Shown piece by piece: positions 6,688 through 62,277 of a stretch of 64,000 bases of DNA; the stretch's first letter is position 1, and every line of letters begins with the position of its first letter. Below the pieces are notes generated by a model. It saw only the letters and a list, made by a program, of their open reading frames with translations, ran no database searches and had not been told where the DNA came from. The stretch is from Candidatus Daviesbacteria bacterium (GTDB taxonomy: Bacteria > Patescibacteriota > Microgenomatia > Daviesbacterales > UBA10151). Both the position numbers and the translations under genes were made by a program. Where the stretch lies: the NCBI GenBank assembly GCA_016183305.1, contig JACPEW010000006.1, forward strand, positions 2,317-66,316, given 5' to 3'.

Positions 6688-8328
6688 ATGAAAGTATCAA
6701 TAAATTGGTTAAAAGAATTAGTTGATTTAAAAATATCCATTGAAGAAGTTATTAGGCTGTTACCTCTTAGAACTATTGGCCTTAAAGAAGTAACCCCAGA
6801 TTATATTGAGCTGGATATGAAAGGTTATAACAGGGCAGACCTTTTATCCTTAAGAGGAGTGGCTTATGAAATAGCAGCTATAACCAATTCAGAAATTAAA
6901 TTTGAAGAAGAAAAACAATTTGTATGGGAAGAAAATAATTTAACCAAAACTAAAGTAACTGTGGAAAATAAATATCTAGCACCACTTTATTGTATTGCAA
7001 GAATAGAAAACCTTAAAGTTGAGGAGTCAAATGAAACATGGGTAAAAAGACTGAACGATTCAGGCATTAGAGCTGTAAATAATATAGCTGATGTTACTAA
7101 TCTAATAATGGTGGAGTTTGGACAACCAATGCATGCTTTTGATGCTGCCCAGGTAGCTGATGAGGCTATAATTGTTAAAGCAGCTAAAAATGGGGAAGAA
7201 TTAACGACTCTAGATGGAAAAGCAAGAAAGCTTACTCCTGAAGATTTGTTAATTACTGATCCTCAAAAAGCTTTAGGATTGGCTGGAGTAATGGGAGGCA
7301 AAAATTCAGAGGTTACAGAGGAAACTTCTGCTATTTTACTAGAAGCTGCTATCTTTGACTCAAAGACTTTAAGGAAAACCTCTACCAAATTAGGACTTGT
7401 ATCTGAAGCCGGCAAAAGGTTTTACCATGGCCTGACCAAACAAAGACTTTTCCAAGCTTTAAACAAAGCTATAAAAATGTATGAGGAAATTGGCGGTAGA
7501 TTAACTGCTTTAACAATTGTAGATAATCTAAACCAGCAGTCTATTACTTTAGACTTAACTCAAAAGAAAACTAACTCTCTTATTGGAATAGAAATTCCAG
7601 CTAAGCAAGTTGAAAAACATTTGGCAGCTTTAAGGTTTAAACTAGCTTCCCACATCGGAAGTGGGAGTGTAGTTTGGGAAGTGACTGTTCCATACTGGAG
7701 ACTGGATATAGAAATTGAGGAAGATTTAATTGAAGAAGTAACCAGGATGTATGGCTATGAAAAGATTCCAGCCAAGGCTTTGAACACAAATATACCAATC
7801 ATATCTCAAAATCTCTTTTTTGACCTGCTGGAGAGGCTTAAACAGGCATTTTCTCAGGCTGGTCTGACAGAAGTCCAAACCTATTCTTATTATTCCTCTC
7901 AAGTGATTAATAATTTAGGATTAAGGATTAATGATTTAATAAAAATAGCTAACCCAATATCATCTGAAACCGAATATTTAAGGGATAATCTCTGGCCAAA
8001 TCTTTTAGAAGTAACTGCTAAAAATACTAGGAATGGGACTGCTGATGCTGCTGTATTTGAAATAGGCAAAGTGTATAAGATACAAGATGGTTTACCACAA
8101 GAAAGCTACCACTTAAGCATTGCCTTAAGCAATGGTACAACCAATCCTCTGCAAGAGCTTAACCAGATAGCCCAAAAATTAAACCTTCAACTGAAGGATC
8201 AATTAACTGGTGAATACTTTCACCCAATAAGACATATTGAGGGAATAGCTGAAGTCCACCCAAGAATTGTTAATAAATTTAAAGTAGAACAAAGAATAGC
8301 CGTTTTAGAGTTGGATCTTTCTAGTTAA
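6688..8328 (+). CDS. pheT: phenylalanyl-tRNA synthetase beta subunit, minimal form
   Basis: MKVSINWLKELV start, B3/4 and B5 regions present. At 546 aa it lacks the OB-fold tRNA-binding insert and the C-terminal anticodon-binding domain of long bacterial PheT. Confidence 0.88.
   Translation: MKVSINWLKELVDLKISIEEVIRLLPLRTIGLKEVTPDYIELDMKGYNRADLLSLRGVAYEIAAITNSEIKFEEEKQFVWEENNLTKTKVTVENKYLAPLYCIARIENLKVEESNETWVKRLNDSGIRAVNNIADVTNLIMVEFGQPMHAFDAAQVADEAIIVKAAKNGEELTTLDGKARKLTPEDLLITDPQKALGLAGVMGGKNSEVTEETSAILLEAAIFDSKTLRKTSTKLGLVSEAGKRFYHGLTKQRLFQALNKAIKMYEEIGGRLTALTIVDNLNQQSITLDLTQKKTNSLIGIEIPAKQVEKHLAALRFKLASHIGSGSVVWEVTVPYWRLDIEIEEDLIEEVTRMYGYEKIPAKALNTNIPIISQNLFFDLLERLKQAFSQAGLTEVQTYSYYSSQVINNLGLRINDLIKIANPISSETEYLRDNLWPNLLEVTAKNTRNGTADAAVFEIGKVYKIQDGLPQESYHLSIALSNGTTNPLQELNQIAQKLNLQLKDQLTGEYFHPIRHIEGIAEVHPRIVNKFKVEQRIAVLELDLSS
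7642..7672 (+). repeat. R1 REP hairpin inside pheT
   Basis: CTAGCTTCCCAC ATCGGAA GTGGGAGTGTAG; translated in-frame as ASHIGSGS. Confidence 0.8.
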
Positions 8329-12097: not shown

Positions 12098-13057
12098 TTG
12101 CTCATAGGAATCTTGCATATTTTATCTAAATTGTTATCTTTTAAACCGGCAATCACCTTGGATACACAAGGTATCACTGACCATATCAGTCTATATTCAA
12201 CCGGTCTAATACCTTGGAACAAAATAGAAGCTTTATTAATCAACAGCGAAAGTTTTCATATTCAATTCAAAAAAGGCTTCTCAGTCATTTCTCAAGCTGG
12301 ATTACTGGCAAAAATTTGGATACGGATATTTAACCCATCAATGAATGATCTTAATATCAATCCGTATTTTATTAAATTTAATCAACCTCATTTAATCTCA
12401 GCAATAAAACAGTATTGTCCTAATATTCCAGTATATCTGCCACCTACCGGACATATCTATTATCATTATCAATCTCTCACTGATGGTGCAAAAGCCAGGT
12501 TGATATTTTTTGGTCTTGGTTCAATCCTGCTTGGATTATTCTTTGTATCATTTCTGTTCTTTATAAAGAATGACCCTACCGTGCTTGAAACACTCCTAAT
12601 TTTAATACCAGTTACTTTAGGCATAACTTTTATTCTATATGGTGTAAATAATTTTATCCAAGTTACCGGGTATAAATTTTTGGTATCTTTCCGTGCAGGA
12701 ATGTTAGCAATAGGGGTGTATTGCGCAGTTGCAACCTTAGGATTAGGATCTCATGTTTTACAACAAGCATTAAATTTCTCTAAATTTATTAAAACAGAAG
12801 GCACTGTCATTGATTTCCGGATTCATACTGATAACCAGCTGCATACCCGCTACGATCCGGTAATACAATATACAATCCCATCTAATCCTTCCGACATCAT
12901 TCTTGATAATTTCCTGGATATGACTACCCCTTTAGTACTAGCACTTGTTACTTTATCCGGATCGCTATACGGATTTTTTATTTTTACCCAAAAAAGAGAC
13001 GAATGGATAATCAAATTTATCAAGGTTTCACCTAAACCTCAAAATACATCTACTTAA
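12098..13057 (+). CDS. hypothetical membrane protein
   Basis: 319-aa ORF, several TM segments. Confidence 0.45.
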   Translation: MLIGILHILSKLLSFKPAITLDTQGITDHISLYSTGLIPWNKIEALLINSESFHIQFKKGFSVISQAGLLAKIWIRIFNPSMNDLNINPYFIKFNQPHLISAIKQYCPNIPVYLPPTGHIYYHYQSLTDGAKARLIFFGLGSILLGLFFVSFLFFIKNDPTVLETLLILIPVTLGITFILYGVNNFIQVTGYKFLVSFRAGMLAIGVYCAVATLGLGSHVLQQALNFSKFIKTEGTVIDFRIHTDNQLHTRYDPVIQYTIPSNPSDIILDNFLDMTTPLVLALVTLSGSLYGFFIFTQKRDEWIIKFIKVSPKPQNTST

Positions 13058-13128: not shown

Positions 13129-13211
13129 CCAGAGGTACCCAAGTGGCCAACGGGGGCTGACTGTAAATCAGCTGGTTTATACCTTCGAAGGTTCGAATCC
13201 TTCCCTCTGGA
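13129..13211 (+). tRNA. tRNA-Tyr (anticodon GUA), long variable arm, C1:G72
   Basis: Acceptor CCAGAGG/CCTCTGG, D arm CCCA-AGTGGCCAAC-GGGG, anticodon arm GCTGA-CTGTAAA-TCAGC, variable arm TGGTTTATACCTTC, T arm GAAGG-TTCGAAT-CCTTC, A73. Confidence 0.9.
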
Positions 13212-13245
13212 CATTGTAAAGTTTGGCTAGTTTTCCTGGACAAAT

Positions 13246-20973: not shown

Positions 20974-22452
20974 CTAAATATAGCCTGAATGGTCAACTAT
21001 TTTTAAAACTTCTCTGGCATCCTCATCAATTAATACTGGTACTGGAATAATTTTACCTGTTTCTATCATTTCCCCTAAACCCTTATCCTCAATAATATCC
21101 CTTAGTAACCCTGCATTGGAACCTATTATTCTTTGTAAAACCTGGTTATTATCTTTTAAATCCCTAATCCCAACAGAATTACAAACAAATAAAATATATG
21201 GTTCATTTTTACCACCATGCATAATAGAAAGCATAGTATTAATATTTTCTATAGCCTGCCTTGGATCAGCTGGAGTAGAGGCAAAAGCCTGATTCTCCGG
21301 ATCAAACTTACCAATAGTTGACCCTCTCATAGCCACAGCCATATAAGATTCCTCATGCTTAGAAAAAGGCCTTTCTTCAATTTTAGCTATGTTTAAACAA
21401 AAGCCTGTTAAATACTGCAGCGCAATATTCCTAATTAACACAAACTTTAAAGTCTTTTTCTGGTTAGCTGTTAAATCCTGATAAAACTCATTTAAATAAT
21501 TTTCTACTTCTGTTTGAAGCTCTGATGCTACTTTTTGGTCAAGTATTGCCTCAGTAACAGATAAGATATTTTGAGAAAAAACAGTTAAATATTTTAAGTC
21601 TGTAAATTTTTGCCTGAATGAACCTAAAACTATATTTTTCTTAACAAAATATTCATCCAGCTGATCTTTATATTTATTAGCTAGGGAAGTGGTAGATAAA
21701 ACTTTTTTTGATTCAAAATTCAAAATAATCCCAAAGCTGTCAGTATCATAAACTGCTGGAATAGCCACTATTTTTTGTGGTTCTAAACCCAGCTGCTCCC
21801 TAAACTCATTGTACATATTAGAGATTGCAGTAATAGTTTTTTCCTTAATAATCTTTAGATTATTTTCTTCCAAAGAGAGTTTGGGGTCCAAAAGCCCTGT
21901 TTTTTTCTTAGCTAACATTGCCCCGCAACCATGATGAGGATCAAATAAGCTGGTGTGGGCTAAAACTATTTCCAACAGATCATTACCTGTGGTAGAAGTC
22001 CTTCTTAAAGCCTCATTTAAATCTGAAGAATCAGGGATTAACTTACCGTCTGATTTTCTTTTGATAACAGAAATTTCTGCTGCTGGAATTTCAAAATGCC
22101 TGGCAAACCTGCCTCCTAAAAAAATAGTAGGGATTCTTCCATCAATACAAAAAACAAAACCTAAGGAAACTCCCTCAGATAACTGCCTTTTTCTTTTAAT
22201 AATTTTTCTATATCCGGGGGTAGATAAAATTTTGGCCACCTGATTATTCCGTTCAATAATATTCCAAATCCTTGCCCTGTCTTTAACAGAAACCTTATGG
22301 CCAGTATGGGCACTAAGATGATCTAAATATAGGTTCAATTGTTCTTCTAAATAAGTTTTTGAGGCAGATAAACTAATCTGTCCTCTGTTATATATCTTTT
22401 CAAAAATACTTTTAACTCTTGTTATATTCAGATGCGGTTGTGGTATTTGCAT
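20974..22452 (-). CDS. CsoSCA-like (beta-class-related) carbonic anhydrase homologue, function unverified
   Basis: C102-I-D104-G-R106 and AH166TSLFDPHHGC176GA match the CxDxR / H-x10-C zinc-site pattern of carboxysomal CsoSCA; 492 aa. Confidence 0.5.
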   Translation of the reverse strand: MQIPQPHLNITRVKSIFEKIYNRGQISLSASKTYLEEQLNLYLDHLSAHTGHKVSVKDRARIWNIIERNNQVAKILSTPGYRKIIKRKRQLSEGVSLGFVFCIDGRIPTIFLGGRFARHFEIPAAEISVIKRKSDGKLIPDSSDLNEALRRTSTTGNDLLEIVLAHTSLFDPHHGCGAMLAKKKTGLLDPKLSLEENNLKIIKEKTITAISNMYNEFREQLGLEPQKIVAIPAVYDTDSFGIILNFESKKVLSTTSLANKYKDQLDEYFVKKNIVLGSFRQKFTDLKYLTVFSQNILSVTEAILDQKVASELQTEVENYLNEFYQDLTANQKKTLKFVLIRNIALQYLTGFCLNIAKIEERPFSKHEESYMAVAMRGSTIGKFDPENQAFASTPADPRQAIENINTMLSIMHGGKNEPYILFVCNSVGIRDLKDNNQVLQRIIGSNAGLLRDIIEDKGLGEMIETGKIIPVPVLIDEDAREVLKIVDHSGYI

Positions 22453-29436: not shown

Positions 29437-30114
29437 TTAATCATCAGCGTCAATTAACAATTTAGAAAGAGCAGGGCTATCAACTTCAGTTTCCTCCACA
29501 AAAGACTGATAAGTTAAATTAGGGTTAGTTTTAGAAAAGTAAGAAGAGATAAGATTTGTATCACAAAATGGATGCGGTTCTCCTGATAAATAATAAGGAT
29601 ATGAGGAATATGGATAAAATCTATGTTCCCACATCGGAAGTGGGAAGCTGTTTCTATGGATATATTTTGATAAATGAAGTAAGTACTCATCTGTCTCAAT
29701 TAGCTTTGCCTTAAATCCACCCTGAAATAAAGAACCTACTCTCTTGTGTCTGGTATTGAAATACCGAGTGTAACTATCTGCCACTTTCCTTAAAAATTCT
29801 GATATACCTCCATCAGCCAATTGTTGAATTAGCAAATGAAAATGATTCGGCATTAAACAGTAACAATATATCCTCACCAGCTCTGTTTGATTATCTATCT
29901 TTTTAAGCTTTATCACACCTCTTCTGAAATCTGAAAGCTTCATTGGAACCGGAGATTTACGGTAATAGTCCAAAGTTTCTAAAAACCTTAGGTGGTCCCA
30001 TCTGTCCATAAAGGTCTTCCTTTTCTCAACACCGCGGTTATAAATATGGTAAAAGCTGCCACTAATAAATGGGGGATTAACCACGCTTCTATTGTCTAAT
30101 CCGTATTCCCACAC
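29437..30114 (-). CDS. REP-associated tyrosine transposase (RAYT; IS200/IS605 TnpA-like Y1 HUH enzyme)
   Basis: YHIYNRG, HUH motif LMPNHFHLLI, Tyr motif SKYIHRN; 225 aa. Confidence 0.75.
   Translation of the reverse strand: MWEYGLDNRSVVNPPFISGSFYHIYNRGVEKRKTFMDRWDHLRFLETLDYYRKSPVPMKLSDFRRGVIKLKKIDNQTELVRIYCYCLMPNHFHLLIQQLADGGISEFLRKVADSYTRYFNTRHKRVGSLFQGGFKAKLIETDEYLLHLSKYIHRNSFPLPMWEHRFYPYSSYPYYLSGEPHPFCDTNLISSYFSKTNPNLTYQSFVEETEVDSPALSKLLIDADD
29621..29650 (+). repeat. R1 REP hairpin inside the RAYT CDS
   Basis: TTCCCAC ATCGGAA GTGGGAA GCTG; reads SFPLPMWE immediately after YIHRN. Confidence 0.8.
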
Positions 30115-30410: not shown

Positions 30411-31982
30411 TTAATCCAACTTTTCCCTTTGGGTTCTGAGGAATGAAAACCATTGTTCAAAGAAGGCAAAGATTCCTTTAAATGGAGTCTCAATTATAAA
30501 GTCAAAAACAAACAAAAGAATATTTATTTGGGAGATAGCTAAAGTTAACCTTCTTCCTACTTGAATAAAAGGCATAAAGAAAAAGTCAAAAGCAAGTGAG
30601 CCAAAATTATCTTTTTTCTTTTTGATAATATACATATTAGCTGTCCTGTTAATCCTGTAACTGACAAAAGATACTATTGCCAGGAAAAAGACAAATACTC
30701 CTTGGGAGAAAGGATTTACATGAAGCTTAGTCAAGATAAAAACTATTGATCCCAGACTAACAGCAAATGTAAACAGCCAAAGTACTACAAACATTCCCCA
30801 AAGCATTGGATCAGTTTTTTTAGGTTTTTTCCTGACTACCAAAGGCTCACTTAACTGGGGATCCCCGTCATATAAAATAGTATTTATTTTCTTTAGGATT
30901 TTTAAGGAATTTTCCCTGGTTGGAGTTTTTATTAAAAATCCTACCCCAATCATCAAAGTTGGAGGAGTAAAGATATTAATTAAGATAGATGACCAAATTG
31001 TCCTGCCATAAAAAAATCTTTCAAAAGCTCCTTCTATAAATAAAGCGAATAAGGCTTTTGTTACAAATATAAAAATCACACTTCTGACAATTGCTCTTCT
31101 GACTTTGCTTGAGATATTTTTATAGCGGGCGCTACAATCTGCAATCACTTCTGAATTTAATAAATCTTCATCAGCCACCAGTGAAGAAGTCTTACCACGG
31201 TATTTTCTTAAAACATCATCCAAAATCAGAAAAGGAATGCTTTGCTTTTTAATGTAGGTATAAATCCTGTCTTTTGCTGGATACTTAAATTGGGTTTCTA
31301 TTTGTTTAATAGCCTCAGGAAAATGGTTAGCAACCCGTTCTAAATTATGTTCATTTAAACCTTCAAAATATTGTTTAAATAAGTGGTAGCGCAAAAAAGC
31401 TAAATCATCATTAGCATATGCTCTTCTTACAGCAATAAAAACTTGGACATCCCGGATTTGCTCATCATCATCAGAAATAGCAACTCTGTCTCTGAAAATC
31501 CTAAACATAAAATTGCTCATAATATCTTTAGGATCATTAGGCTTTAAAATATGTTCTATCTCAGAAGATAAAAGATGTAAAACCCACTCATTAACCAAAC
31601 CTTTATTAATCCTGTGTTTAACATTTACTTTTTCTTCTAACTTTAAATACAAGTCTGTTTGTTCTGCTACTTTGGTAATTTGAGACTCAGGAATTGTGGA
31701 ATCAGGAAAATAACGGGCCCAAATCAACTCCCTTATTAAAGGAGCAGCGATTGATTGACCATCCCCACCCAGCATCAGTCTTCTTTTTAAAATCCTTTCA
31801 ATTGTGGAACGCAGGATTACCTCATCTTCCCTATAATCCATTGCTGTCCTAAACTTTTCATACCAGGTAGCCAGTTCTGCCACCAAAGGATTAACAGAAA
31901 TAGTTTTATCATGGTTGGGAATAGCTGCCCTGTCATATGCTGTTACCAAGGCTGTGGATAATTTATTTAATGTTTTAGCCAT
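30411..31982 (-). CDS. hypothetical polytopic membrane protein (523 aa)
   Basis: Soluble helical N-terminal half, 5-6 TM C-terminal half. Start moved to ATG 31982 because the 22 codons upstream are R2-repeat sequence. Confidence 0.5.
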   Translation of the reverse strand: MAKTLNKLSTALVTAYDRAAIPNHDKTISVNPLVAELATWYEKFRTAMDYREDEVILRSTIERILKRRLMLGGDGQSIAAPLIRELIWARYFPDSTIPESQITKVAEQTDLYLKLEEKVNVKHRINKGLVNEWVLHLLSSEIEHILKPNDPKDIMSNFMFRIFRDRVAISDDDEQIRDVQVFIAVRRAYANDDLAFLRYHLFKQYFEGLNEHNLERVANHFPEAIKQIETQFKYPAKDRIYTYIKKQSIPFLILDDVLRKYRGKTSSLVADEDLLNSEVIADCSARYKNISSKVRRAIVRSVIFIFVTKALFALFIEGAFERFFYGRTIWSSILINIFTPPTLMIGVGFLIKTPTRENSLKILKKINTILYDGDPQLSEPLVVRKKPKKTDPMLWGMFVVLWLFTFAVSLGSIVFILTKLHVNPFSQGVFVFFLAIVSFVSYRINRTANMYIIKKKKDNFGSLAFDFFFMPFIQVGRRLTLAISQINILLFVFDFIIETPFKGIFAFFEQWFSFLRTQREKLD

Positions 31983-32016
31983 TTGATGTACTATGATAAT
32001 ATTAACACAGTCCATT

Positions 32017-32041
32017 GTCATCCCAGACTTGATCTGGAATC
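32017..32041 (+). repeat. R2 unit in tyrS divergent intergenic region
   Basis: GTCATCCCAGACTTGATCTGGAATC. Confidence 0.7.
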
Positions 32042-32060
32042 TGTGCAAAGTAATTTATTT

Positions 32061-33182
32061 ATGACTACTGATGAGAAAATAAAGCTAATTACCAGAAATC
32101 TGGAGGAAGTTTTAACCGAAGAAGAGTTAAAGGCCTTAATAGAATCAGGTACCCCTTTAAAACACTACATTGGTTTTGAAATCTCTGGAAAACTGCATAT
32201 TGGTTCTTTATTTACTTTGATGAAAGTAAAAGACTTACAAGATGCTGGGGCAGAAACAGTTATTTGGATGGCAGACCTTCACTCAGCAATTAATGATAAA
32301 TTGGATGGAAATTTAGAAACTATTAAGAAAGTAGCAGATGAATATTTTAAAGAGGCAATGAAAGCTTTGTTTACTTGTATTGGCGGAGATCCAGAAAAAC
32401 TTATTTTTAAATTAACCTCTCAAACTTATGCTCAAAATCCAGACTTTTGGCTAACACTTTTAGAAATTGGCAAAACAACCACACTAGCTCGCACTAAAAG
32501 ATCTATTACCATTATGGGTAGGGAAGGCTCTGATGATAGCATGCCGACTGATAAACTCTTTTATCCTATTATGCAAGCAGCAGATATTTTTCTTTTAGGA
32601 GCCAACATTGCTCATGCTGGAATTGATCAAAGAAAAGTACATGTAATAGCCAAAGACGCTGCCATGCAAGTTAAAACCTTTCCTTTAAAAGATACCCAAG
32701 GGAATAAAATCAAGCCAGTAGCTATTCATCACCCTATCTTGCTCAGCCTTAGTGGACCAGTAAGCGCTGGAGGAGAGGCTGATGAAGCAGCAATGAAAAA
32801 TAAAATGAGTAAATCTAAACCAGGCAGCGGGATAACAATTCATGATACTCCTGAACAAATCAAAGTAAATATTAATCAGGCCTATGCTCCTGAAGGAGTT
32901 ATAGAAGGGAATCCTGTTTTAAATTGGACAAGATATTTAATTTTTTATGGCAATAATTCCAGCTTAACTGTCACCAGGGATCCAAAATGGGGAGGGGATT
33001 TAACTTATACCTCATATGAGGATTTAGAAAAGGATTATGTAGAAAGAAAACTCCATCCTCAGGACCTAAAAATGGCAGTAGCAGAGTGGCTAATTGCTAA
33101 GCTAAAACCAGCAAGAATTTATTTTGAAGACCCTAAAGGAAAAGCAGCTTTAGCAGAAATAGAAAGGCTAACCAAAAAGTAA
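32061..33182 (+). CDS. tyrS: tyrosyl-tRNA synthetase, archaeal/eukaryotic type
   Basis: By-eye colinear match to M. jannaschii TyrRS: YIGFEISGKLHIGS, MADLHSAIN, YPIMQAADI, KMSKSK, VIEGNPV, KWGGDLTYTSYEDLE, KLHPQDLKMAVAE. Start set at ATG 32061. Confidence 0.85.
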   Translation: MTTDEKIKLITRNLEEVLTEEELKALIESGTPLKHYIGFEISGKLHIGSLFTLMKVKDLQDAGAETVIWMADLHSAINDKLDGNLETIKKVADEYFKEAMKALFTCIGGDPEKLIFKLTSQTYAQNPDFWLTLLEIGKTTTLARTKRSITIMGREGSDDSMPTDKLFYPIMQAADIFLLGANIAHAGIDQRKVHVIAKDAAMQVKTFPLKDTQGNKIKPVAIHHPILLSLSGPVSAGGEADEAAMKNKMSKSKPGSGITIHDTPEQIKVNINQAYAPEGVIEGNPVLNWTRYLIFYGNNSSLTVTRDPKWGGDLTYTSYEDLEKDYVERKLHPQDLKMAVAEWLIAKLKPARIYFEDPKGKAALAEIERLTKK

Positions 33183-41300: not shown

Positions 41301-43079
41301 TTACTTAACTTGATAAGTTCCTTTGACTAAAGAATATGATCCAGAAGGACCTGAAGAGAAAAAGGTTGAAGCAAAGCCAGATTGATAATTTAAAATTGCC
41401 GAAGTACCTAAATTAATCCCCCAAGCTGTAATTTCTCTAAAAGCTGCCCCGTTGGCCAATTCAACTTTTCCTAAAGGCGCATACAAAATACCGCTAATTG
41501 ATGAGTTGCCAATTGTAATAGCAGCATCTCCATTGATAATAGAACTATATAGTACTAGCAACATTAAATAACTTCCCTTTGTTCCTGAACCTAAAATGTC
41601 TGCCCCATTGCCCAAAACTGTTTTACCGTCAACAATAATCACTCCTGAGGCAGGACCAAAATCCTGGTCAAGAATTAATTTAGTGCTGTTGCCTGTATTG
41701 AGAGTTCCAGTAATCCATACAGGAGCAATCACTTTGGTATTACAACTATTTCCTAATAAAACATCACCATTTATCTTTCCAGGCCCAAGGGTAGCCACAC
41801 AACCGCTAATACTCCCGCCAGATCCTGCTGCCTCTGCTTGATTTTTCCAATCAGTCATATTTGCTTCAGAAATGGGAAACACAGTTGGGGCAGGATCGGC
41901 AGAACCTGGATATTTAGTTCCTGAAACTACCACAGAAGGCCCTAAATTCTGGTAATATGCATCTTTGGTAATAGTCATATTACCTTCAATCATATTAGCA
42001 TGAACATCTCCGGAAACTACCGAACCATTGCCTAAATTAAGCAATGTAGCAGCACCACCCAAAAAAGTCCTAAAACCTAAATCTCCTAAAATATCTGTCC
42101 ATGCAGAATCACCTGTTTGCCAATCAGAAGACCACTTAGGCCCTCCTTGAGGATACCCTTGGGCAAAATCATTTGACCATGACCAGTAATTAGCAGCATC
42201 TAATGATTGAGTATGAACCATAATCCAATAGATAGTATTTCCTTCAAGAGTAGGTGTAGTATCAAAAGTAATATCTATAAAACCATACTCTTCCGTAACT
42301 AAATTAGCAGATAAAGTCCCTGTTGCTAAAACGTTGTTTTTGTTAGGTTTACCATTTGCATCAGTCATAATTCTAACTGTTGGATTAGTGGGTAGACCAA
42401 ATTTTTTAAATTTTAAGGAAACTTTATTTAAAACTCCAGAAGTCGTTGGCTTAAAGCTCTGAGCAATATCTTGCCTATTCTCTCCGCTTACTGCTTTACC
42501 AAAAATATAATCCTGACAATTTAGTTGGTTGCAATCACTTTCCACATCAGCACTTGCCTGAGCAGCTCCAGCTATCCAAACATCACCTATAAAAGTGGCA
42601 TTATTTCCTCCTGTAATATTGCCATTAGAATAAATTGATCCATTAAAAATAGCTCCTGTGCCCATATTAATCCCGCCTTCCCCAACTTGCAGACCATAAA
42701 CAAAAGAAATACCTGCCCCTTTTGAAGCTTTTATGGTAACTGTCCTCTTTGTTCTTGGGTTTGTTTTAGCTGGAATATAGCCTGTGGCTTGTAAAATTTT
42801 AGTAGAAGCATCCTTGTCTGTTATGGTAACTGAGTAAGAGCCTGCCCCGTAGGAAGTTTCAGCCTCTCCGTTATAACTCCCGCCAGTCTTATTTAAAGAA
42901 GTTAAGGCTTTATCTACCCCTGCTTCTGCCAAAGCAAGAGCTTTTTCTACGTCTACAGAATATTGGGCATTTTGGAAATAAAGCTGGGCTGCTCCTATCA
43001 CAAACAAAACAGTAAAAAGCACAACTCCCAGAGCCACAACCGTTAAAAGCAATATTTGCCCTTTTTGATTTTTAATCAT
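41301..43079 (-). CDS. large PilX-N-like minor pilin / pilus-associated protein (592 aa)
   Basis: N-terminal QKGQILLLTVVALGVVLF...AEAGVDKAL pattern; Gly/Asn/Thr-rich repetitive body. Confidence 0.45.
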   Translation of the reverse strand: MIKNQKGQILLLTVVALGVVLFTVLFVIGAAQLYFQNAQYSVDVEKALALAEAGVDKALTSLNKTGGSYNGEAETSYGAGSYSVTITDKDASTKILQATGYIPAKTNPRTKRTVTIKASKGAGISFVYGLQVGEGGINMGTGAIFNGSIYSNGNITGGNNATFIGDVWIAGAAQASADVESDCNQLNCQDYIFGKAVSGENRQDIAQSFKPTTSGVLNKVSLKFKKFGLPTNPTVRIMTDANGKPNKNNVLATGTLSANLVTEEYGFIDITFDTTPTLEGNTIYWIMVHTQSLDAANYWSWSNDFAQGYPQGGPKWSSDWQTGDSAWTDILGDLGFRTFLGGAATLLNLGNGSVVSGDVHANMIEGNMTITKDAYYQNLGPSVVVSGTKYPGSADPAPTVFPISEANMTDWKNQAEAAGSGGSISGCVATLGPGKINGDVLLGNSCNTKVIAPVWITGTLNTGNSTKLILDQDFGPASGVIIVDGKTVLGNGADILGSGTKGSYLMLLVLYSSIINGDAAITIGNSSISGILYAPLGKVELANGAAFREITAWGINLGTSAILNYQSGFASTFFSSGPSGSYSLVKGTYQVK

Positions 43080-55201: not shown

Positions 55202-56806
55202 TTACCTTTTTATCTCTAATTTATACAAACTGCATTTATTATTACAGCCCTTTTCTGCTAAAGATAAGTTAAATTCTTCTTTTATTTTCTGCATATCAAA
55301 AGAAAACCAATATTTATCTTCAGTTTGGTAAACTGATACTAATACAGTTTTACTTTCCCTTAGATAATCTTTATACAAATCTATTAAACTGCCTTGAGGA
55401 CTAATACCCCAAGTTTGCTCTACACCTCCTGTAAAATATTGACGGAAAGACAAAGGTAAAACTTTGTATTTATGGTTTGAATAAAAATCAATCATATAAG
55501 GGGAAAGTGTAGAGATAATTACGGGTTTCAAAGTATAAGAGTTAGCATATTGATTCATTATCTCAATAGCTTCATAGTTTTTAGCTTTTTCTGGCTGCAG
55601 GAAAATAAGTTTTAGCTCATTGCTAACTTGACCCAGCGGCAAAGGAATCATTGCTAAAATAACAGTAAGATAAATAAACCCCATTAAAAATTTAAAATAT
55701 AGTCCTTGATAACGCCATTTTAAAAAATTCCCTAAAGTCTGTAAAAAAATACCGGAGATAAGGAAAAATATAGGAATAAAGACAAATAAATAACGGGCAT
55801 CAACAATATAAAAAGTACTTATAAAATATAAAGTTCCAGTAATAGAAAGAAAAAAATAAAAGCTTAATAATTTATTTTTTCCAGTTAACAGGTTAATAAA
55901 AATAGCTGCAATAGAAGTCATCCCTACTATAATAGGCAGTAAAATAAAATCTTTTTGCAAAACAGTCACCTGCCCTCCCATAATCCCAGCCAGATAACGG
56001 ATAAAATTATTCTTTAGGTAAACCGTTGAAAAAGATCCCGATGAAGAAACAGTTACCAGGTTTTGCAAAACTAATATAACTGTATTTAAAACATTAACTT
56101 CCTTGTTTAAAAATTCAATATAAGCAAAGACCGAAAAAAGAATTAATAAACTTAAGAAAAATAAAAACAAGAATAAAAGTTTTTTCTTTAGCAAACTTTT
56201 AAATGATCTAACTTTGATAATAAAAGCAATAATTAAGGACAAACTCAACACCCAGGCTACATATTTTGTAGCAAAAAATGCCATGGTTAAAAACGGAAAC
56301 AGTATCACAGAAAAAATAGTAAGTGGCTGTAACAGCAACCAAACAGAAAATAGGTATAAAGGTATTAGCAAATTTTTAGCCATAGCTACTTGTGGATACC
56401 AAAAAATAATGTAGTTAGTCACAAAACCTAAAAATAAAATACTTTTAATTACTGGGCTTGCAAATAATTTGCAGATAATTTTATAAAACAAAATGGCAGA
56501 GATTAGTGTTAAAAATACATTAGTAATATAAAAAAACCTAATCTCCCGGAAGATAAAATAAATAGGAAAAAGAGTTAAAGAATATAGAGGAGGAACTGTG
56601 GTAGGAATATCTCTGCCCTCATAGGAAATAACTAAACCCTTACCATGCGCTAAACTTATCAGCGGATTTAAATAATGGATGCTGTCAGGAGAAGGTTCCA
56701 ACCCTGAGATAAAGTTATACGGAGATAAAGGGTTTTTAAAAAGCAGTAATAATAGCAAAAACATTCCCAAAACAAATATTTTGTTGTGTTTAAGAAATAG
56801 AATCAT
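55202..56806 (-). CDS. GT-C fold polytopic glycosyltransferase (ArnT/PMT-like)
   Basis: About 12 TM segments; first loop EPSPDS...TTVPPLYSL resembles the GT39/GT83 pattern. Confidence 0.45.
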   Translation of the reverse strand: MILFLKHNKIFVLGMFLLLLLLFKNPLSPYNFISGLEPSPDSIHYLNPLISLAHGKGLVISYEGRDIPTTVPPLYSLTLFPIYFIFREIRFFYITNVFLTLISAILFYKIICKLFASPVIKSILFLGFVTNYIIFWYPQVAMAKNLLIPLYLFSVWLLLQPLTIFSVILFPFLTMAFFATKYVAWVLSLSLIIAFIIKVRSFKSLLKKKLLFLFLFFLSLLILFSVFAYIEFLNKEVNVLNTVILVLQNLVTVSSSGSFSTVYLKNNFIRYLAGIMGGQVTVLQKDFILLPIIVGMTSIAAIFINLLTGKNKLLSFYFFLSITGTLYFISTFYIVDARYLFVFIPIFFLISGIFLQTLGNFLKWRYQGLYFKFLMGFIYLTVILAMIPLPLGQVSNELKLIFLQPEKAKNYEAIEIMNQYANSYTLKPVIISTLSPYMIDFYSNHKYKVLPLSFRQYFTGGVEQTWGISPQGSLIDLYKDYLRESKTVLVSVYQTEDKYWFSFDMQKIKEEFNLSLAEKGCNNKCSLYKLEIKR

Positions 56807-59631: not shown

Positions 59632-62277
59632 ATGGTTAAGAAAGCAGTCCATTTTCTAGGAATAGGGGGGTCTGGTACTTCTTCTGCTGCTGCAATTGCA
59701 GAGGCTCAAGGATTTGAGGTTGGTGGTTGTGATCTGCAACCCAATAATGAGTTCACCACCATTTTCCAACCAAACCAACTCCAAGTAGGCCATAGTCCCC
59801 AGCATTTAGCTTCCCACCTTAAAGGTGGGAACGTAGATATTTTAGCTGTTACTCCTGCTATTTTTTCTTTAGACCCAGATAACCAAAAAAAAAAAAAAGA
59901 AAAGAAAAAAGGGATTGAAGTTTTAACCTGGCAGCAGTTTGTTGGTAAATATTTAGCTAAGGACAAATCTGTTATTGCTGTTTGTGGCACTCATGGCAAA
60001 ACTACCACAACTGCTATGATTGCCCAAATATTAGAAGATGCAGGCTTAGACCCAACTGTAGAGCTGGGTGGTATTGTTCCCAGATGGAAAGCTAACTATA
60101 GAGTAGGAAAAGGAAAGTACTTTGTAGTAGAAGCTGATGAATTTAATGATAATTTTTTATCCCATTATCCTCAAATTACAGTAGTAACTAATATTGAAAT
60201 GGACCACCCAGAATATTTTAAGGATTTTGAGGCAGTGAAAAGTAGTTTTAAAAAGTTTTTACTTCAAACTAAAACAACAATTGTAACTAATTTAACAGAC
60301 TCTACTGTTGCTGAAATTCTTAAAGGTGTAATGAAGGAATCCTCAGTTTCTGCTCTGGATTTTACCAAAAGCCGGATGGATTTTAACTTAAAAATACCAG
60401 GTCAACATAATGTTTTAAATGCCAAAGCAGCAATGCAGGTAGGACTCCTTTTAGGAACAGGCCCAGAAATTATTAGAAAAAGTCTAAATAACTATACTGG
60501 AGCAGGCAGAAGGTTTGAGTATATTGGAGAGTTTAATCAAGCAAAAATTTATTCTGATTTTGCTCATCATCCTACAGAAATAAAAACAACTATGGAAGCT
60601 GCTAGGGAAAAATTCCCTAAGGAGAGAATATTTTTAGTTTACCAGCCACATATGTTCTCAAGAATTAAAGCCCTTTTTGAAGACTTTGTTAGAGTTTTCC
60701 AAAGCCTACCAGTTGACCAAATCTTTATTACAGATATTTATCCTTCCAGGGAAAAAGATACTGGTTTAGTAAATAGCAAACAGCTTGTTGATGCTACTGC
60801 TAAAGATTCTGTAAGTTATATTGGTAGTATAGATGAAACTTTAGAAAAATTAAAACCACAAATTAAACCAGGAAATGTTGTCTTTTTCATGGGAGCAGGC
60901 AGTATTGATCAATTAGCCAGAAAGTTAGTGAAACAAAAAGTTTTGGTATTTGGCTTAGGTCTAAACCAAGGCGGAGTAGGGGTAGCTAAATTTTTTGCTC
61001 AAAATGGAGCAGAAGTTAGAATAACTGATTTAAAAACTGAAAAAGACTTGCAAGCTTCTTTAGATAAGTTAAAAGAATTTAAAAACATTTCCTATACTTT
61101 AGGGGGGCATACATTTGAAGATATTGATTGGGCTGACTTAATTATTAAAAACCCGGCTGTTAAACCAGAAAATAAATATATTGGGTATGTATTGGAAAAA
61201 GATAAAGAAGTAGAAACAGATTTTTCCATTTTCCTCCAATATGCAGATCAAAAAAAGATTATCGCTATTACTGGCACCAAAGGTAAAACCACAACTGCTT
61301 CACTGATTTATGAAGTATTAAAAGCTGCAAATGAACAGGCAGTGCTGGCTGGAAATATTGGCAGAAGTATTTTAGATACCTTACCATATTTAGATAAAAA
61401 CCCTTGGATTATAGTAGAAATATCTTCTTTTCAACTACAAGCTTTGGCGGAAAAAAATTTTGCTCCAAAGATTGCTGTTATTACTAATATCTATCCGGAT
61501 CACTTAAATTGGCATTTCTCAATGGAAGAATATATTGAGGCTAAAAAAATAATTGCCGAATACCAAACAAAAGAAGATTTTCTTTTTATTAGAGGGGGGA
61601 ATGTAATGGTAGATAAACCGGATTTTTTAAAAGGTTTGAAAGCTAAAATTATCCGCTTTTCCAAAAATGACTTACCGGCAGGTTTACAACCTAATTTGCT
61701 AGGAGAACATAATCTAGAAAATATAGCAGCAGCGTATTCAATAGGTAAAGTTCTTAGCGTCAACTCAAACCTCCTCCTCAAATCTCTTACTCAGTTTAAA
61801 GGTGTGCCGTTTAGGATAGAACTTATTAAGGAGTGGTATGGAGTAAAAATTTACAATGATACTACAGCTACTTCCCCTGAAGCAGGGATCCAAGCCATAA
61901 AAACGCTTTCCAAACTACATTCCCACATCGGAAGTGGGAAGCTAGTTCTTATTTGTGGTGGCATGAATAAAAAAATGGATTATAAAAAATATGCAGAAGA
62001 AGTTATTAAAAATGTTCAACAAGTATTTTTTCTGGAAGGAGATGCAACTGAGGAAATCATCAAGAGAATTCAGAATTTAGAGTTCAGAGTTCAGAATGGT
62101 GGAATTTATAATAATATTGAAAAATTGCTACAGGATGTTAAAAAAGAAGTAAAACCTGGAGATACTATTTTGTTTTCACCAGCAGCCACTTCTTTTAATT
62201 TATTCCAAAATGAGTTTGACAGGGGAAGACAATTTAATAAAGCAGTTGAAAAAGTTTTTGGGGAAGATGCTTCTTAG
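59632..62277 (+). CDS. murC-murD: MurC-MurD fusion: UDP-MurNAc L-alanine ligase joined to UDP-MurNAc-L-Ala D-glutamate ligase
   Basis: MurC half: FLGIGGSGTS, CGTHGKTTTTAM, EADEFN, GAGRRFE, DFAHHPTE. MurD half from about aa 437: VFGLGLNQGGVG, ITGTKGKTTT, EISSFQL, NIYPDHLNWH, FKGVPFRIE, NDTTATSPEA. Confidence 0.88.
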   Translation: MVKKAVHFLGIGGSGTSSAAAIAEAQGFEVGGCDLQPNNEFTTIFQPNQLQVGHSPQHLASHLKGGNVDILAVTPAIFSLDPDNQKKKKEKKKGIEVLTWQQFVGKYLAKDKSVIAVCGTHGKTTTTAMIAQILEDAGLDPTVELGGIVPRWKANYRVGKGKYFVVEADEFNDNFLSHYPQITVVTNIEMDHPEYFKDFEAVKSSFKKFLLQTKTTIVTNLTDSTVAEILKGVMKESSVSALDFTKSRMDFNLKIPGQHNVLNAKAAMQVGLLLGTGPEIIRKSLNNYTGAGRRFEYIGEFNQAKIYSDFAHHPTEIKTTMEAAREKFPKERIFLVYQPHMFSRIKALFEDFVRVFQSLPVDQIFITDIYPSREKDTGLVNSKQLVDATAKDSVSYIGSIDETLEKLKPQIKPGNVVFFMGAGSIDQLARKLVKQKVLVFGLGLNQGGVGVAKFFAQNGAEVRITDLKTEKDLQASLDKLKEFKNISYTLGGHTFEDIDWADLIIKNPAVKPENKYIGYVLEKDKEVETDFSIFLQYADQKKIIAITGTKGKTTTASLIYEVLKAANEQAVLAGNIGRSILDTLPYLDKNPWIIVEISSFQLQALAEKNFAPKIAVITNIYPDHLNWHFSMEEYIEAKKIIAEYQTKEDFLFIRGGNVMVDKPDFLKGLKAKIIRFSKNDLPAGLQPNLLGEHNLENIAAAYSIGKVLSVNSNLLLKSLTQFKGVPFRIELIKEWYGVKIYNDTTATSPEAGIQAIKTLSKLHSHIGSGKLVLICGGMNKKMDYKKYAEEVIKNVQQVFFLEGDATEEIIKRIQNLEFRVQNGGIYNNIEKLLQDVKKEVKPGDTILFSPAATSFNLFQNEFDRGRQFNKAVEKVFGEDAS
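59885..59898 (+). repeat. A14 homopolymer inside the murC half
   Basis: 14 consecutive A, followed by GAAAAGAAAAAAGGG; reads QKKKKEKKKG. Confidence 0.95.
61915..61945 (+). repeat. R1 REP hairpin inside the murD half
   Basis: TTCCCAC ATCGGAA GTGGGAA GCTAG; reads HSHIGSGKL. Confidence 0.85.
62069..62096 (+). repeat. R3 tandem heptamers inside the murD half
   Basis: TTCAGAA TTTAGAG TTCAGAG TTCAGAA; reads IQNLEFRVQNG. Confidence 0.75.

Follow-up and report, generated by a model that had tools for sequence, protein, structure and literature searches.

Tyrosyl-tRNA formation follows a textbook domain-specific identity rule, which is also the base of the M. jannaschii orthogonal pair for genetic-code expansion. 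The barrier between the bacterial and the archaeal/eukaryal tyrosine systems has been placed in the first base pair of tRNA-Tyr (PMC1934993; PMC9976931). In E. coli and T. thermophilus, tRNA-Tyr is a class II molecule with a GUA anticodon, A73, the pairs G1:C72 and G2:C71 and a long variable arm (V-arm), which is bound by the S4-like C-terminal domain of the bacterial tyrosyl-tRNA synthetase (TyrRS) (Mukai et al. 2017, PMC5370408, Fig. 1 legend). The archaeal tRNA-Tyr, represented by M. jannaschii (1J1U) and P. horikoshii (2CYC), differs in being a class I molecule with a short variable loop and the set C1:G72 and A73. In the M. jannaschii enzyme, Arg174 reads C1, Lys175 reads G72 and Arg132 touches C1 via water (Tsunoda et al. 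2007, PMC1934993). Human mitochondria break the identity rules of their domain, with a tRNA-Tyr that lacks the V-arm and an enzyme that keeps the S4-like domain and has lost 1:72 discrimination (PMC5370408; PMC9976931). The mirror image of this arrangement is found in bacteria belonging to the candidate phyla radiation (CPR), where Mukai, Reynolds, Crnkovic and Soll described a C1-G72 tRNA-Tyr that has a V-arm together with an archaea/eukarya-type TyrRS (Life 2017;7:8, PMC5370408). These authors attributed the CPR enzyme to transfer from DPANN archaea, and Daviesbacteria are among the major groups whose TyrRS was placed in their tree.

Here we analyze a tRNA-Tyr gene and a TyrRS gene (tyrS) in a 64,000-nt stretch of contig JACPEW010000006.1 from a Candidatus Daviesbacteria bacterium, referred to below as the window. 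Both lie on the same strand, 19 kb apart and in no shared operon. In all likelihood they encode the cognate tRNA-Tyr/TyrRS pair of this organism (Microgenomates, CPR), which would have arisen when its TyrRS was replaced by lateral transfer and its native tRNA was adapted to the new enzyme. The combination has been known since 2017, and the window adds one more genome of a described group: C1-G72, A73, the V-arm, an archaeal-type TyrRS without S4 and the superphylum are all the same, with no essential difference from the published CPR system. Two general points had likewise been made in 2017, namely that bacteria living by the archaeal rule show identity rules not to be hard-wired to domains, and that a synthetase from another domain can take over, provided that two nucleotides of the tRNA change accordingly. 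What is added here is the covariation of the V-arm, the synteny of tRNA-Tyr and tyrS in Daviesbacteria, the frequent adjacency of the two genes elsewhere, and candidates for the trait outside the CPR. The value of the window itself is that of a clean syntenic example, from a family in which a V-arm that is probably now unread appears to be still selected. Natural long-arm C1:G72 tRNAs of this kind are also scaffolds to try as orthogonal tRNAs.

The tRNA-Tyr gene and its relatives

The tRNA-Tyr(GUA) gene occupies 13129..13211 on the + strand (83 nt including the discriminator A73). ARAGORN called a tRNA-Tyr with anticodon GTA at 13129-13212 (+), and the Rfam model RF00005 matched 13129-13211 with 54.3 bits (gathering score 29; E = 6.7e-9 for the whole window) over its full length (model positions 1-71). 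In the covariance-model alignment, the 5' acceptor strand CCAGAGG (13129..13135, with C1 at 13129) was paired with CCUCUGG, followed by A (CCTCTGG and A73, 13204..13211; G72 at 13210 and A73 at 13211). This gives C1:G72, C2:G71 and A73 in a perfect 7-bp helix, which is also obtained when the register is anchored on the T-arm. The anticodon GTA (G34 U35 A36), evident from the sequence and from ARAGORN, lies at 13163..13165. The variable region TGGTTTATACCTTC (13173..13186) is 14 nt long, 12 nt of which are an insertion relative to the RF00005 model, and forms a 3-bp helix (GGT/ACC) closed by the loop TTAT. The minimum-free-energy (MFE) fold showed the same cloverleaf with the 3-bp V-arm hairpin (-30.2 kcal/mol, z = -2.1), and all stems of the tRNA are perfect. 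A pattern combining a GUA anticodon loop, a long variable region, a T-loop and G72-A73 matched once in the window, compared with 0.00 matches in 100 shuffles.

The first base pair therefore differs from the canonical bacterial G1:C72, as found in the E. coli reference, and C1:G72 with A73 is the archaeal/eukaryal identity set. At the same time, the 14-nt arm with its hairpin sets the molecule apart from an archaeal/eukaryal class I body, whose variable loop is short (4-5 nt). An initial annotation of this DNA had described exactly such a tRNA-Tyr at 13129-13211, with C1:G72, A73 and a retained long bacterial variable arm, and ARAGORN, the Rfam register and the MFE fold all bear it out. That annotation had allowed that a covariance model might shift the acceptor stem to G1:C72, but the stem did not move. 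A G1:C72 register was sought and rejected, since C1:G72 resulted from each of four approaches (covariance model, ARAGORN, MFE fold and T-arm-anchored register).

Judged from its sequence, the tRNA body is bacterial class II. By blastn, positions 4-77 of the window tRNA are 81% identical to the annotated tRNA-Tyr in all 5,426 complete E. coli genomes, and an alignment of the interior with E. coli tRNA-Tyr gave 77.9% identity. The difference between the two centers on the end of the acceptor stem, with an inversion of its first two pairs; E. coli tRNA-Tyr has G1:C72 and G2:C71, so that the window tRNA is flipped at the second pair too, which goes beyond the initial description.

To place the gene in a wider setting, we searched 185,579 species-representative genomes once for tRNA genes with a GUA anticodon, a long variable region and G72-A73, which recovered at least 120 loci (referred to by L numbers). 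The register used was the T-arm-anchored one, as ARAGORN was off by one base in some relatives, for example L002. A CPR-type family (CCRGRGR...), characterized by C1:G72 in an acceptor stem of seven perfect base pairs, unites the window with at least 60 of these loci. Among the matches listed, the titles in this family name Daviesbacteria, Roizmanbacteria, Dojkabacteria, Woesebacteria, Pacebacteria, Parcubacteria and Patescibacteria.

Fifty-five distinct members of the family were aligned and scored against an explicit cloverleaf. C1:G72 was present in all 55, where C1 and the pairing itself are the only free observations. Standard pairs were formed in 98.0% of the cells, compared with 39-57% when the 3' partners were slid by 1-3 columns. 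Both sides had changed in 16 of the 25 pairs, and none of 500 shuffles reached the observed covariation score. In the V-arm, all four pairs had changed on both sides; the pair 48:56, for instance, was CG in 28 members, GC in 25 and UA in two. Every helix, including the V-arm, is thus kept by compensatory change across 55 C1:G72 relatives. Since its pairs covary, the V-arm appears to be maintained as a helix, even though the partner enzyme has no arm-reading domain.

These data also bear on whether the gene might be a non-functional relic or a mis-registered prediction, with C1:G72 carrying no biological meaning. The window gene does not encode CCA (CAT comes next), and a promoter and terminator scan of its surroundings, itself uninformative, returned three promoter-like sites where 1.6 were expected and no terminator, so that no convincing expression signal lies nearby. 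A missing CCA is the norm in the family, however, applying to 53 of the 61 members among the matches listed. The full-length Rfam match with its perfect stems, the same architecture in 55 distinct relatives with abundant compensatory change, and a 97.6% identical copy of the gene in L054 all contradict a relic. This explanation is effectively refuted, and we give it almost no credence.

The tyrosyl-tRNA synthetase and its predicted fit to the tRNA

The tyrS gene (32061..33182, + strand) starts with ATG at 32061 and encodes 373 aa, identical over 100% of the length to the NCBI entry 'tyrosine--tRNA ligase [Candidatus Daviesbacteria bacterium]', which is encoded on a 79,920-bp contig. The protein scored 386.3 bits with the NCBIfam model NF006330 (PRK08560; cutoff 220), matching it over positions 1-337 of its 342, and barely passed the general tyrS model TIGR00234 (114.2 bits, where the cutoff is 113.8). 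Its best PDB matches were archaeal (2cyc, 1e-102; 2cya, 1.5e-79; 2cyb, 1.2e-64; M. jannaschii 1j1u, 1e-56), while the bacterial TyrRS 1h3e was matched at only 5e-9. Of the class I motifs, HIGS occupies residues 46-49, and KMSKS is found at 248. PF00579, spanning residues 31-348, was the sole Pfam match, and no S4-like C-terminal domain was found by Pfam in the 373 aa, in contrast to a bacterial-type TyrRS in locus L123, which carries the S4 domain PF01479. As PF00579 extends to residue 348 of 373, there is no room for such a domain.

The residues that contact C1:G72 are conserved, since in the alignment R132, R174 and K175 of M. jannaschii TyrRS correspond to R147, R191 and K192 of the window enzyme. 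Further residues with roles in the 1J1U structure are also retained: Y32 as Y36, D158 as D175, H283 as H332 and D286 as D335. F261 is replaced by W310, which, with the 14-nt V-arm and the bacterial host, distinguishes the window from the archaeal systems; the homologous enzyme and the identity set are what it shares with them. An insertion of about 40 residues relative to M. jannaschii TyrRS was considered as a CPR-specific reader of the V-arm and rejected, as it is also present in P. horikoshii TyrRS (2cyc). By these sequence comparisons, the window TyrRS is of the archaeal type, as the initial annotation of an archaeal-type tyrS at 32061-33182 had proposed.

We propose that the bacterial TyrRS of an ancestor was replaced by a laterally acquired enzyme of archaeal type. 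The native class II tRNA-Tyr would have stayed beside pheT and the gene for the penicillin-binding protein PBP1a, with G1:C72 (and G2:C71) being inverted to C1:G72 (and C2:G71). By homology, C1:G72 would now be read by R147, R191 and K192, A73 would also be read by the enzyme, and G34 would be read with W310, H332 and D335. The V-arm would no longer be read by the new enzyme, the S4-like domain being missing, and its helix would still be under selection, probably as part of the core architecture of a class II tRNA.

The conserved contact residues support the expectation that the window enzyme would charge a C1-G72 tRNA and reject a G1-C72 tRNA. In the M. jannaschii system, moving C1, G72 and A73 into tRNA-Pyl suffices for charging by TyrRS, and G1-C72 abolishes activity (PMC6337575), which argues that an archaeal-type TyrRS tolerates a foreign tRNA body; the structural placement of the barrier between the two systems in the first pair (PMC1934993; PMC9976931) points the same way. 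C1-G72 in bacteria is otherwise the normal mark of tRNA-Pro (PMC2018626), so that discrimination against ProRS would have to rest on the anticodon.

The two genes also occur together in other genomes. In 10 fetched loci, a six-frame phmmer search with the window TyrRS as the query found an archaeal-type TyrRS open reading frame (ORF) near a C1:G72 V-arm tRNA-Tyr, with scores of 242-372 bits. In eight of the 10 (L016, L084, L061, L074, L023, L004, L062 and L097), the tRNA gene lies directly upstream of tyrS on the same strand; in L111 it is located about 700 bp away, and in L088 the orientation is divergent. This adjacency supports a predicted functional pairing of C1:G72 tRNA-Tyr with archaeal-type TyrRS. 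The suggestion, made at the outset, that the switched first pair matches the archaeal-type tyrS is supported by the bacterial class II body of the tRNA, its C1:G72 pair with A73, and the archaeal-type TyrRS with conserved contact residues on the same contig.

Other arrangements were encountered in the same survey. In a Caldisericia-named locus (L123:10001-14644; also L124 and L125), the gene for an archaeal-type TyrRS (376 aa) shares 4 nt with the beginning of a radical-SAM gene, and the opposite strand carries the bacterial-type TyrRS with S4 (402 aa) at a distance of 2.3 kb, placing the two types in one locus; no tRNA-Tyr was found near the TyrRS locus in L123-L125. A 1.5-kb contig of Staskawiczbacteria (L098:1145-1313) carries two tRNA-Tyr(GTA) genes in tandem, 5 nt apart, one with G1:C72 (80 nt) and one with C1:G72 (84 nt), which may represent coexistence or a transition state.

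Genomic context and the probable origin of the pair

The window has 36% GC and an ordinary bacterial housekeeping gene content, comprising thrS, infC, rplT, pheS, pheT, a class A penicillin-binding protein, glycosyltransferases, an F-type ATPase operon, recG, nusB, rnc, rpsP, trmD, a type IV pilus cluster, gyrB and Mur ligases. Of the 120 best TyrRS matches, all that were named came from Daviesbacteria or Microgenomates. Together with the identical Daviesbacteria TyrRS and the synteny described next, these features identify the predicted host as a CPR bacterium of the Microgenomates/Daviesbacteria.

The neighbors of tRNA-Tyr in the window are an AAA_33 gene and PBP1a (-). The Daviesbacteria loci L019 and L093, and also L054, share the order pheT, PBP1a (-), tRNA-Tyr (+), GT2 (-), GT2 (-), with PBP1a 75-82% identical; in L019 and L093, PBP1a and GT2 are syntenic and 73-82% identical. 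The order atp operon, Y1_Tnp, tyrS is kept in Daviesbacteria L121, whose genome has a contig of 1.10 Mb. This conserved synteny, seen separately for tRNA-Tyr and for tyrS, argues that both are vertically inherited chromosomal genes in Daviesbacteria.

An IS200-like Y1 transposase-family gene (29437-30114, - strand) lies about 2 kb upstream of tyrS in the window. It adjoins tyrS in L121 as well, where TyrRS is 68% identical, and is for this reason a conserved neighbor and not a fresh insertion.

The tRNA gene was compared with its counterpart at the same syntenic site in Daviesbacteria L019 (L019:3833-3914). The two are 79.5% identical, and their differences in the D-stem and V-arm are compensatory.

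The adjacency of the genes elsewhere raises the question of whether a tRNA-tyrS cassette from another CPR bacterium brought in a long-arm tRNA-Tyr that already had C1:G72, which then replaced the native gene and was later separated from tyrS. Such cassettes exist, with tRNA-Tyr just upstream of archaeal-type tyrS in eight loci and nearby in L111 and L088, and the window tRNA is no closer in its interior to the syntenic L019 gene (77.9%) than to that of E. coli (77.9%), even though the adjacent PBP1a proteins of the window and L019 are 82% identical. The window itself does not share the arrangement, however, as its two genes are 19 kb apart, and each sits within its own conserved Daviesbacteria synteny block. 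Furthermore, identity between the window TyrRS and the TyrRSs of the cassettes is no more than 45-50%, and the D-stem differences from L019 are compensatory, as fast evolution in place predicts. We therefore regard acquisition as a cassette as unlikely, and favor adaptation of the native tRNA to a laterally acquired enzyme.

A further explanation is that the C1:G72 tRNA-Tyr and the archaeal-type TyrRS form an extra, mutually specific pair with a specialized role, the canonical bacterial pair being encoded elsewhere in the genome. Coexistence of this kind has parallels in the Caldisericia loci, where the archaeal-type TyrRS is in an apparent operon with the radical-SAM gene and the bacterial-type enzyme lies close by, in the tandem G1:C72 and C1:G72 genes of Staskawiczbacteria L098, and in Beckwithbacteria, where bacterial and archaeal TrpRS/tRNA-Trp pairs occur together (Mukai et al. 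2017, PMC5370408).

Within the 64-kb window, ARAGORN found no second tRNA-Tyr, and a six-frame phmmer search with archaeal-type and L123 bacterial-type TyrRS queries found no second class-Ic synthetase ORF. With the bacterial-type query, no bacterial-type TyrRS was detected in the window or in any flank of the tRNA-Tyr loci. The initial annotation had named a canonical tRNA-Tyr plus a bacterial TyrRS elsewhere in the genome as what would contradict it, and on this the search was negative within the 64 kb covered. An extra pair is also at odds with the location of the genes, since in several Daviesbacteria the switched tRNA is found at a conserved housekeeping site (pheT, PBP1a, tRNA-Tyr), and tyrS stands in a conserved arrangement among housekeeping genes (atp operon, recG, nusB). 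CPR genomes are about 1 Mb in size, and duplicate synthetases are rare in them. In addition, Daviesbacteria figure in Mukai et al. (PMC5370408) as carriers of the archaeal-type enzyme, and no bacterial TyrRS is reported for them in that paper. Taking both sides together, we consider an extra pair quite improbable.

Several points nevertheless weigh against replacement of the enzyme followed by adaptation of the tRNA. In the alignment of 55 relatives, G72 and A73 were set by the search pattern and C2 by a filter, so that their invariance is not independent evidence. The absence of a bacterial TyrRS and a G1:C72 tRNA-Tyr is an observation on the 64-kb window, from which their absence from the genome is extrapolated. 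An archaeal-type TyrRS can be an extra copy, as in Caldisericia L123-L125. The table of Giege and Eriani gives only A73, G34 and U35 as bacterial Tyr determinants (PMC9976931), and bacterial TyrRS enzymes may accept a flipped first pair more readily than commonly supposed. Finally, C1:G72 alone is no proof of an archaeal-type partner, given the C1:G72 long-arm tRNA-Tyr of Anaerovoracaceae described below.

Possible first-pair inversion beyond the CPR and further features of the window

At least 35 of the surveyed loci are attributed to Anaerovoracaceae (Clostridia, Firmicutes). Their long-arm tRNA-Tyr(GUA) has the form CGAGGGA...TCCCTCG-A-CCA with an encoded CCA, the pair 1:72 alone is inverted, and the body closely resembles E. 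coli tRNA-Tyr. The set contains isolate genomes, namely Emergencia timonensis SN18 (L022), Lentihominibacter faecis BX16 (L029), Alterileibacterium massiliense (L081) and [Eubacterium] infirmum NCTC12940 (L092), and metagenome-assembled genomes (MAGs) of Mogibacterium (L036, L042 and L096) and Aminipila (L116), as well as L001, L003, L009, L017 and others; Emergencia and Mogibacterium both belong to Anaerovoracaceae. In L001, the one locus inspected, the gene sits in an ordinary tRNA cluster. No TyrRS was found in the 8-kb flanks of the Anaerovoracaceae tRNA-Tyr loci by six-frame phmmer with archaeal- and bacterial-type queries, and no clostridial protein was among the best 120 matches in two TyrRS protein searches. 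Within an incomplete coverage of the literature, we found no paper on a C1:G72 tRNA-Tyr in this family.

An Omnitrophota-titled MAG (L061:6329-7599) carries one of the tRNA-tyrS cassettes, and its TyrRS falls in an Omnitrophota/Hinthialibacter clade; the next-best matches, at 56-62% identity, include Woesearchaeota, Nanoarchaeota and Pacearchaeota (DPANN archaea) and a Caldisericia cluster. This cassette argues that the trait is not confined to the CPR. Together with the Anaerovoracaceae genes, it raises the possibility, which we put forward only tentatively and hold to be somewhat doubtful, that inversion of the first pair on a bacterial long-arm tRNA-Tyr recurs across Bacteria beyond the CPR. 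Should this be so and Anaerovoracaceae lack an archaeal-type TyrRS, a bacterial TyrRS would have switched or relaxed its 1:72 specificity; should they possess one, the enzyme would have reached a Firmicute family that is associated with humans and can be cultivated. In both cases, culturable organisms would be available for testing the identity switch.

At least 22 loci titled 'MAG TPA_asm: uncultured Gammaproteobacteria bacterium' also carry the CPR-type tRNA-Tyr (L012, L014-L016, L020, L023, L026, L028, L032, L038, L048, L052, L056, L068, L077, L102 and L105-L108 among them). L038 contains two Daviesbacteria GT2 genes in synteny at 62-64% identity, and L016 and L023 contain the archaeal-type tyrS cassette. 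Given this synteny and these cassettes, the titles are unreliable, and we do not claim the trait for Gammaproteobacteria.

A separate set of GUA tRNA-like genes with C1:G72, A73 and a long V-arm was found in L007, L053 and L101 (Mycobacterium/Mycolicibacterium), L040 (Cellvibrionaceae), L109 and L027. CCA is encoded in four of these six (L007, L053, L101 and L040). All have an unusually long D-stem of 5-6 bp (e.g. GTGAC...GTCAC) and a shifted register, and they are not standard tRNA-Tyr genes.

Among the other genes of the window, PheRS beta (6688-8328, + strand) has 546 aa and was aligned by the bacterial model only from position 167 on, so that its N-terminal region is missing. Many CPR PheRS-beta proteins are without the B2 domain according to Mukai et al. 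(2017, PMC5370408), and the short window protein is consistent with this remark. Five large ORFs of 319-592 aa had no Pfam match (12098-13057 on the + strand; 20974-22452, 30411-32048, 41301-43079 and 55202-56806 on the - strand), two of which flank or sit within the type IV pilus cluster. An 881-aa ORF (59632-62277, + strand) contains two Mur ligase modules, with two matches each to Mur_ligase_M and Mur_ligase_C, and is apparently two peptidoglycan ligases fused into one.

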